Part shown: positions 1,376 to 1,639 of the stretch, piece after piece
How positions within the stretch are numbered: the stretch's first letter is position 1
Layout of the letters: every line of letters begins with the position of its first letter
IMG/VR virus record: IMGVR_UViG_2660238499_000005
DNA from: a virus
Lineage: Duplodnaviria; Heunggongvirae; Uroviricota; Caudoviricetes
Strand: one strand, 5' to 3'
DNA length: 5,821 nucleotides
Translations under genes and position numbers: made by a program
Notes under the pieces: generated by a model
The model's input: the letters and a program-made list of their open reading frames with translations, nothing else
The model's database searches: none
Told to the model about the DNA's origin: nothing

Positions 1376-1639
1376 ATGAGTAATAAAACACTTGTTAAAA
1401 AATCAAATAACTGTGTCGATGCATACGCCGACGCGTTTGGCTACTCTTCGTTTGGTGACGGCTCTCAGCGCCTAGGTTCAATTTCTTTTTTTCATAATGT
1501 AACTGAATGGCCTGTTGATGAAAGTGACGATGTTGAGAACATAAAGTACAACATTGCAACCATTAGAATGCCCGAAGAATTGATGCTTAAATTGGCTGAC
1601 TTCATTCGCGACCAGCATGACAAAGCTAAAACAAACTAA
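1376..1639 (+). CDS. Hypothetical 87-aa protein, first gene of the repressor-linked cassette
   Basis: ORF with SD-like GGAAAGG 6 nt upstream of the ATG; 82 bp downstream of the repressor stop on the same strand. Acidic, no signal peptide or TM segment. The C-terminal IATIRMPEELMLKLADFIRDQ resembles a beta-strand/helix of ribbon-helix-helix proteins but is too short to be a complete fold. Confidence 0.55.
   Translation: MSNKTLVKKSNNCVDAYADAFGYSSFGDGSQRLGSISFFHNVTEWPVDESDDVENIKYNIATIRMPEELMLKLADFIRDQHDKAKTN

Follow-up and report, generated by a model that had tools for sequence, protein, structure and literature searches.

A Two-Gene Prophage Cassette of Enterobacterales Pairing a Small Acidic Protein with a Tail-Anchored Membrane Protein, Possibly for Phage Exclusion

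Introduction

What do prophages encode immediately behind the genes of their repressors? The interval between cI and N is a mosaic hotspot holding rexAB and bstA (PMC8585504), and the gene 16–gene 9 slot of P22-like prophages is occupied by SieA (PMC10883804). The question is raised here by a degraded prophage in which a cI-type repressor gene is followed by two small open reading frames (ORFs), of 87 and 147 codons. The original prediction, made from the letters of the DNA, described the product of the former as an acidic orphan protein that might be the soluble partner of the membrane protein encoded by the latter, in a two-component exclusion or toxin-modulator module. The literature, searched by accession, PHROG identifier and keyword, yielded no paper on either protein.

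The Putative Repressor Operon of a Degraded Prophage

The window, which is the whole stretch of 5,821 nucleotides analysed here (IMG/VR record IMGVR_UViG_2660238499_000005), is a piece of the E. coli chromosome containing a degraded lambdoid prophage, which is adjoined by tRNA-Arg(TCT) (3735-3811, minus strand), fimZ and the sfm fimbrial genes. Its features are as follows.

1-490: remnants of an invertase gene and of a tail-fibre-assembly gene
565-593, plus strand: PRM-like sigma-70 promoter, TTGACC-17-TAAATT (consensus scan only)
601-1293, plus strand: cI-type repressor of 230 aa, HTH_3 and Peptidase_S24 domains, ATG at 601 (Pfam, PHROG)
1362-1369, plus strand: Shine-Dalgarno (SD)-like sequence GGGAAAGG, with AAGG, ending 6 nt before the ATG of the next gene (sequence)
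1376-1639, plus strand: acidic cytoplasmic protein of 87 aa, member of phrog_4231 (ORF, PHROG, dN/dS, AF2)
1640-1651, plus strand: 12-nt junction, TCGTAATTAATT, with no SD (sequence)
1652-2095, plus strand: tail-anchored membrane protein of 147 aa, phrog_3556 (PHROG, AF2, alignment)
1805-1819, plus strand: internal GGGAG (1805-1809) and ATG at 1817 (Met56), at the start of the coiled-coil/transmembrane (TM) core (sequence)
2009-2062, plus strand: predicted TM segment, about residues 120-137, LAVLLGVPAIIAAGTGLY (alignment)
2170-2201, plus strand: strong intrinsic-terminator-like hairpin (2170-2193; 9-bp stem with six G-C pairs), then a T-run (scan)
2339-2367, plus strand: PL-like promoter, TTGATA-17-TATTAT, inside operator-like repeats (consensus scan)

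The promoters and the terminator were called by consensus scans, in which the number of promoter-like sites does not exceed that expected from shuffled sequence. The PRM-like promoter, with operator-like repeats (~480-560) just 5' of it, ends 7 nt before the ATG of the repressor gene, so its transcript would be leaderless or nearly so. The repressor (PF00717, 1.5e-18; PF01381, 1.5e-6; phrog_4), identical genes for which are annotated in RefSeq as a 693-nt CDS, is putatively encoded by the first gene of an operon that continues into the 87-aa and 147-aa ORFs: a terminator scan of the window predicts none from cI to the 87-aa ORF, and the hairpin at 2170 would end the operon. The two-gene cassette would be the distal part of this repressor operon (PRM-like promoter, cI, 87, 147, terminator), and it should therefore be made in lysogens. 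At the far border of the immunity region, the PL-like promoter is directed toward kil and gam, and beyond it lie kil, a truncated gam, a DUF1382 gene and an integrase fragment.

Prophage decay flanks the intact repressor and cassette (44-157, 2927-3211 and 3441-3719). The Gam protein of the window is shortened to Pfam positions 1-73 of 98, a C-terminal fragment of the integrase abuts the tRNA-Arg gene, and a DNA-invertase HTH remnant is also present. More intact copies of this type of prophage are carried by O26:H11 strain 11368 and other strains, and intact lambdoid prophages at icd and argU have the order cro / cI / 87 / 147 / kil-gam-bet-exo. A full-length match to the Rfam family IS009 (RF02111; 289-489, minus strand; 177.7 bits vs a gathering score of 117) overlaps the tail-fibre-assembly remnant (ORF 255-422, minus strand), directly 5' of the repressor operator region.

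Two further observations concern the immunity region itself. An N-type antiterminator gene is absent between the PL-like promoter and kil in the window (2368-2644) and in related prophages that are intact (L009, 7593-8144; L011, 5597-6145), and an N_peptide gene is present at this place in a Klebsiella relative (L057); an Rfam search of the PL leader found no known RNA element. Moreover, two HTH domains are found on one and the same S24 C-terminal domain of the repressor, with the same cassette behind them (601-1293 of the window vs 3230-3919 of locus L013), and the implication is that their immunity specificities differ. The sequences switch over at ...TKIVEIANALGV, an indication of a recombination junction within the gene of the repressor.

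The 87-aa Gene and Its Family

The ORF had been placed at 1376-1639, and the sequence agrees, with an ATG at 1376 and a TAA at 1637-1639 enclosing 87 codons. Its product is indeed acidic (pI 4.96, net charge -4.3), as are all 16 family members (pI 4.35-5.9), and its hydrophilic N-terminus means that it has no signal peptide, as had been stated. The claim that the gene has its own SD holds in a weaker form: the SD-like sequence in front of it offers a moderate AAGG rather than a canonical motif. Comparable GGA/AGG motifs lie 6-10 nt 5' of the family gene at all of the homologous loci.

Comparison of the ORF with six homologues (from Salmonella phage UPF_BP1, a second E. coli lineage, Leclercia, Serratia and Raoultella) gave dN/dS values of 0.05-0.14 over 19-44 synonymous changes, with synonymous sites near saturation. 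These values put the ORF far beyond a chance reading frame; it is a real gene under strong purifying selection.

The protein had been called an orphan of no recognisable family, which is true of Pfam, NCBIfam and PADLOC, where scans gave 0 matches, but not of PHROG: over residues 1-87 it matches positions 1-87 of the 88 in phrog_4231 (E 7e-54), a PHROG of unknown function, and it has homologues. The defence-protein models of PADLOC-DB v2 were among those that gave 0 matches, and the family profile, run against PDB sequences, returned nothing below E 0.35. There are 10 family clusters at 90% identity among 5.8 billion proteins, and 8 representatives at 50% identity were recovered from 1.84 billion by an exhaustive HMMER search, in which no remote annotated relatives appeared. 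A survey of 185,579 species genomes added one locus, in Arsenophonus, to those already seen, and 39 IMG/VR contigs carry the family. With homologues in E. coli, Salmonella, Leclercia, Serratia, Raoultella and Arsenophonus, and with an 88-aa protein from locus L111 as a further member (BLASTP E 1e-7, profile E 1.4e-5), this is a tiny family confined to Enterobacterales prophages. Within E. coli, the cassette is found in 205 of 5426 complete genomes (~4%), with at least 80% of the query covered in 198; among the matches listed, it is annotated as two intact hypothetical CDSs, strain 11368 included.

AF2 modelling of the protein from a 10-sequence alignment (mean pLDDT 80) gave strands at residues 20-26, 33-46 and 54-66, followed by a single C-terminal helix at 67-86; the predicted fold is an antiparallel sheet of three to four strands plus this helix. 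The original prediction had seen in the C-terminus part of a ribbon-helix-helix (RHH) strand and helix, from which it might be supposed that the protein is a degenerate regulator related to Mnt and Arc. The segment IATIRMPEELMLKL does locally resemble the strand and helix A of Mnt/Arc, and the family gene often lies directly 3' of mnt. However, the resemblance (RMPEELMLKL vs RMPMEVREKL in Mnt) extends over 10 residues with a BLASTP E of 3, which is insignificant; Pfam gives no RHH match even at E<=1; and hhalign against an Arc/Mnt alignment gives a probability of 13.9% over 23 columns. The RHH fold consists of a strand and two helices, with an intermolecular two-stranded ribbon, whereas the 87-aa protein ends after one helix and the strand in its AF2 model belongs to an intramolecular sheet; its acidity is also unfavourable for DNA binding. 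The RHH assignment is consequently given up as a local resemblance, and kinship with Mnt/Arc is extremely improbable.

A Tail-Anchored Membrane Partner

The product of the downstream gene is a basic protein (pI 8.6) in which an N-terminal extension with a YYExPNL motif (residues 1-~30), a Ser/Gly linker (~30-55) and a coiled coil (56-103) are followed by a KPS hinge and then by a juxtamembrane and TM helix (108-146). The AF2 model (pLDDT 62) has helices at 11-28, 56-103 and 108-146, with disorder at 29-55. The TM segment is highly conserved among 21 aligned relatives. Because an N-terminal signal is absent and the TM helix is followed by only ~10 residues, the hydrophilic bulk of the protein should be cytoplasmic; being nearly without periplasmic exposure, the protein is hard to picture as directly barring DNA that enters from outside.

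Residues 56-147 make up a highly conserved core, in which a Met is followed by the coiled coil (48 residues), then by a KKPS hinge and finally by ISDAKLAVLLGVPAIIAIGTGxYK. This core is shared by 65 protein clusters and by 62 viral contigs, with Escherichia, Klebsiella, Pantoea, Erwinia, Serratia and Rahnella among the sources, so that the partner is more widespread than the 87-aa protein. The N-terminal extension is under purifying selection as well (pN/pS 0.27-0.64). Against PADLOC, the partner gave only coiled-coil noise (E>=0.0037).

The core begins with a start codon in all of the 31 distinct core genes (ATG in 30, GTG in one), preceded by a GGAGG-type SD for which Gly codons in the linker provide the sequence; this internal start was seen in the window and in loci L001, L004, L005, L009, L043, L047, L052, L055, L058 and L085-L122. 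Of 29 distinct linkers, 24 contain GGA-GGN, which encodes 52% of the Gly-Gly pairs in the linkers; for background ORFs from these loci the share is 26% (binomial p 1.3e-5, which is not a clean probability because the genes are related). The conservation of both SD and start suggests two products, one of adaptor plus core and one of the core alone (92 aa), and makes Met56 a candidate second translation start for the latter. Such an in-frame start would recall P22 SieB/Esc and lambda S107/S105, to which there is no homology; P22 esc is annotated as the internal-start product of sieB and as protecting against it.

Pairing of the Two Genes

The 12-nt gap between the two ORFs was correctly described (1640-1651, with the next ATG at 1652), and a junction of this length without an SD fits translational coupling. 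Elsewhere the junction measures from -17 to +8 nt (-17 to +12 nt with the window). A gene of the 147-aa architecture lies 3' of the family gene in 39 of 39 IMG/VR loci and in all the other loci examined, including those from NCBI/ENA. The original prediction had staked its case on conservation in related elements; the family ORF is conserved and is intact in all loci. Comparative genomics thus gives strong support to the proposal of a small soluble partner of a membrane protein in a two-component module.

The association extends beyond adjacency. In UPF_BP1, Leclercia and L047 the partner has exchanged its coiled-coil/TM part, and even there an N-terminal motif of the [DNE][YF]Y[AE]xPxL type stays with the 87-aa family, which supports the idea that the extension is a docking adaptor. 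Where the core occurs without the 87-aa family, the gene of another small soluble protein lies 5' of it at -20 to +17 nt, and at least five further BLAST-distinct upstream families (93-106, 119 (Cys-rich), 136, 139-156 and 142-167 aa) were found, to each of which a particular N-terminal extension of the membrane protein belongs. This one-to-one match of upstream protein and extension is the main argument for a docking adaptor. In 9 of 10 sampled core loci with other upstream families, an S24/HTH repressor is encoded one gene further 5'. Hence, that the 87-aa protein is the partner of the 147-aa membrane protein is well supported by these comparisons, and from them we infer that the two proteins would be in physical contact.

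Some similarities and arrangements that might be thought to bear on the pairing have another standing. In an hhalign comparison, 75 columns of the 87-aa family align collinearly with the "type C" upstream partners of 93 aa, at a probability of 14.6%; its P-value (~0.002) equals that of the rejected RHH match, and kinship is therefore not established. A 134-aa E. coli protein (P0005; compare L001, 4012-4749) joins the first 57 residues of the small protein to the coiled-coil/TM tail of the partner, like a Rosetta-stone fusion. It was rejected as such, being a single-sequence in-frame deletion between two DVENIK repeats, a sequence that both genes have, probably by microhomology, and as the deletion of a single genome it is not counted as evidence of pairing. 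In the window, the two ORFs share a reading frame (1376-2095) and are split by TAA TCG TAA TTA ATT, with two stops; elsewhere the two genes overlap out of frame (-4, -8, -14), so a read-through fusion is not conserved. Finally, locus L089 (1022-1761) has tandem coiled-coil/TM genes, of 99 and then 136 aa, without a small soluble partner, and this pair follows a large ORF with an AraC-like C-terminal sequence, which is unlike a typical prophage immunity region.

Genomic Slots of the Cassette

A lysogeny repressor is encoded immediately 5' of the family gene in 34 of 39 viral contigs: in 23 it is a cI/S24 repressor (with either of two HTH domains), in 10 it is Mnt/Arc, the stop codon of which overlaps the start of the family gene, and in one it is a different S24 protein. 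The Arsenophonus copy is directly 3' of the gene for an XRE HTH protein, and five viral loci have no repressor adjacent to the cassette. P22-like phages (UPF_BP1 and the prophages of Leclercia and Serratia) carry the pair in the interval from mnt to gene 16, in place of the sieA and orf59a of P22. Raoultella-type siphoviruses have the pair inside their tail module, inserted on the opposite strand and adjoining a DUF6246 gene; a promoter/terminator scan gave no convincing promoter of its own for this copy.

The side of the DUF6246 gene is a second hotspot for coiled-coil/TM cassettes (L005, 6001-6663; L052, 4537-5381; L109, 2547-3291), with three different families of upstream partner; in L005 and L052 these cassettes are opposite in strand to the flanking tail genes.

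The comparison of loci strongly supports a mobile two-gene cassette that would occupy slots expressed in lysogens, whether behind cI, behind mnt or as an insertion in the tail module. Transcription with the repressor, and with it expression in lysogens, is what this placement suggests.

Relation to Known Systems

The gene order of the window is such that the 87-aa and 147-aa ORFs fill exactly the interval of rexA and rexB in lambda. Rex is an abortive-infection system, in which the sensing of a phage leads to membrane depolarisation. The likeness to Rex includes the whole succession of PRM, cI, a soluble-protein gene, a membrane-protein gene, a terminator and OL/PL, as well as the combination of one cytoplasmic and one inner-membrane component, presumably expressed in lysogens. 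However, RexA has 279 aa rather than 87, and RexB reads as a hydrophobic protein that passes the membrane several times, unlike the 147-aa protein with its one C-terminal TM helix and long cytoplasmic coiled coil. No BLASTP or profile match to RexA or RexB was better than E~10.

In P22-like prophages, the position of the cassette is that of the superinfection-exclusion protein SieA (the gene 16–9 immI position), and in both cases an inner-membrane protein is encoded. SieA, however, works alone (PMC10883804), and the cassette has two genes; furthermore, sieA of P22 has its own promoter after a terminator, whereas the cassette overlaps mnt and appears to be co-transcribed with it. The FxRYPxEAxxFNK motif that characterises SieA types A-C (PMC10883804) is absent from both proteins of the window, and BLASTP comparison found no homology to SieA/B, orf59a, Mnt or gp17. 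The cassette belongs to neither Rex nor SieA, from which it differs in sequence, topology and sizes. BstA, the Abi protein of the Salmonella BTP1 prophage, is likewise encoded 3' of cI and has no homology to the cassette; it is described as a single protein found at sites of phage DNA replication, whereas the cassette has a membrane component.

The partner also has the size, the N-terminal coiled coil and the C-terminal TM helix of XhlA-type proteins (PF10779, phrog_1193/937). Its score against Pfam XhlA is 14.1 bits, where the cut-off is 34.7 (E 0.053), and against phrog_1193 it reaches E 1.3e-4. XhlA genes are found in the lysis cassettes of Bacillus phages and are not known from immunity operons.

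What the Cassette May Do

The exclusion or toxin-modulator function proposed in the original prediction is suggested by position and architecture. In the mechanism envisaged here, the 87-aa protein would dock on the N-terminal extension of its partner and act as a sensor or modulator, while the coiled-coil/TM core would be the effector at the inner membrane, where it might exclude or abort a superinfecting phage by a logic like that of Rex in a location like that of Sie. The hypervariable modules of upstream partner and adaptor suggest an arms race, and it is on this arms-race-like modularity and on position that an anti-phage function, taken alone, would rest; we consider it to be roughly evenly balanced between true and false, bearing in mind that the genes of repressor operons are not always defences. 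The reading as a whole, in which a soluble Rex-like modulator and a membrane effector are expressed in lysogens for exclusion or abortive infection, may be right with about the same even chance.

One alternative is a toxin-antitoxin or addiction pair, in which the partner would be a membrane-damaging toxin and the 87-aa protein a proteinaceous antitoxin, and which would stabilise the prophage or its remnant or else serve in abortive infection. The order of the genes, with that of a small acidic protein before that of a basic membrane protein and with coupled junctions, is what such a pair would have; the swappable upstream genes before a conserved downstream gene resemble toxin-antitoxin mix-and-match; the cassette and cI are intact inside a heavily degraded remnant; and the many small residues and strong conservation of the TM helix agree with a protein that oligomerises within the membrane. 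Nevertheless, no toxin-antitoxin family is matched in Pfam, NCBIfam or PADLOC, the AF2 model of the 87-aa protein has no DNA-binding fold that would serve for autoregulation (as might be looked for in a type II system), and the operon is under the promoters of the phage repressor, with none of its own. This explanation is unlikely, and it overlaps the preferred one, since toxin-antitoxin systems can be Abi systems. Another possibility is that the cassette is lysogenic-conversion cargo that acts outside phage-phage conflict, in envelope stress, in colonisation, or in the induction or DNA entry of its own phage. Its placement is like that of a moron, it has no homology to any defence family, and EHEC O26-type strains are enriched among 151 near-identical E. 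coli copies. However, the cassette shares the slots of rexAB, bstA and sieA, its partner/adaptor modules suggest an arms race, and its distribution over hosts and types of phage that are unrelated does not follow a single pathotype; we regard this as unlikely.

A role as a lysis accessory, of the XhlA type or resembling a holin and antiholin, with the 87-aa protein as its regulator, might be supposed from the weak profile matches to the "hemolysin" phrog_1193 and to Pfam XhlA given above and from the conserved internal start, which recalls the dual starts of holin/antiholin genes. But these matches are biased by the coiled coil and lie under the curated cut-offs, and neither endolysin nor holin nor spanin genes adjoin the cassette in the annotated neighbourhoods, so that this role is very improbable.

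The reading as a soluble modulator and a membrane effector can be extended to the modular family as a whole. The tail-anchored effector would then be used with at least six unrelated small sensors through N-terminal adaptors, as an anti-phage family of prophages; it would be made as a long isoform bearing the adaptor and possibly as a short, core-only isoform from the internal start; and it would ride in cI, Mnt and XRE repressor operons and in the tail-module hotspot of Enterobacterales temperate phages. This joint proposal is put forward tentatively, as one that is rather more likely to fail in some part than to hold in all.

Implications

If the preferred reading is true, a widespread, unnamed two-gene system occupies the slots of rexAB, bstA and sieA and is present in about one in 25 complete E. 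coli genomes, including those of EHEC O26:H11. The defences of prophages would gain a compact design, in which a soluble sensor is combined with a tail-anchored effector and in which pairs of sensor and adaptor can be swapped. To our knowledge, how a signal is transferred from the cytoplasm to a membrane effector is still open for Rex after 60 years. Should the function not be defence, the cassette would still be a conserved membrane module that is probably expressed in lysogens; should it be defence, its two proteins of 87 and 147 aa would be a small and tractable model for the passing of a cytoplasmic signal to an effector in the membrane.
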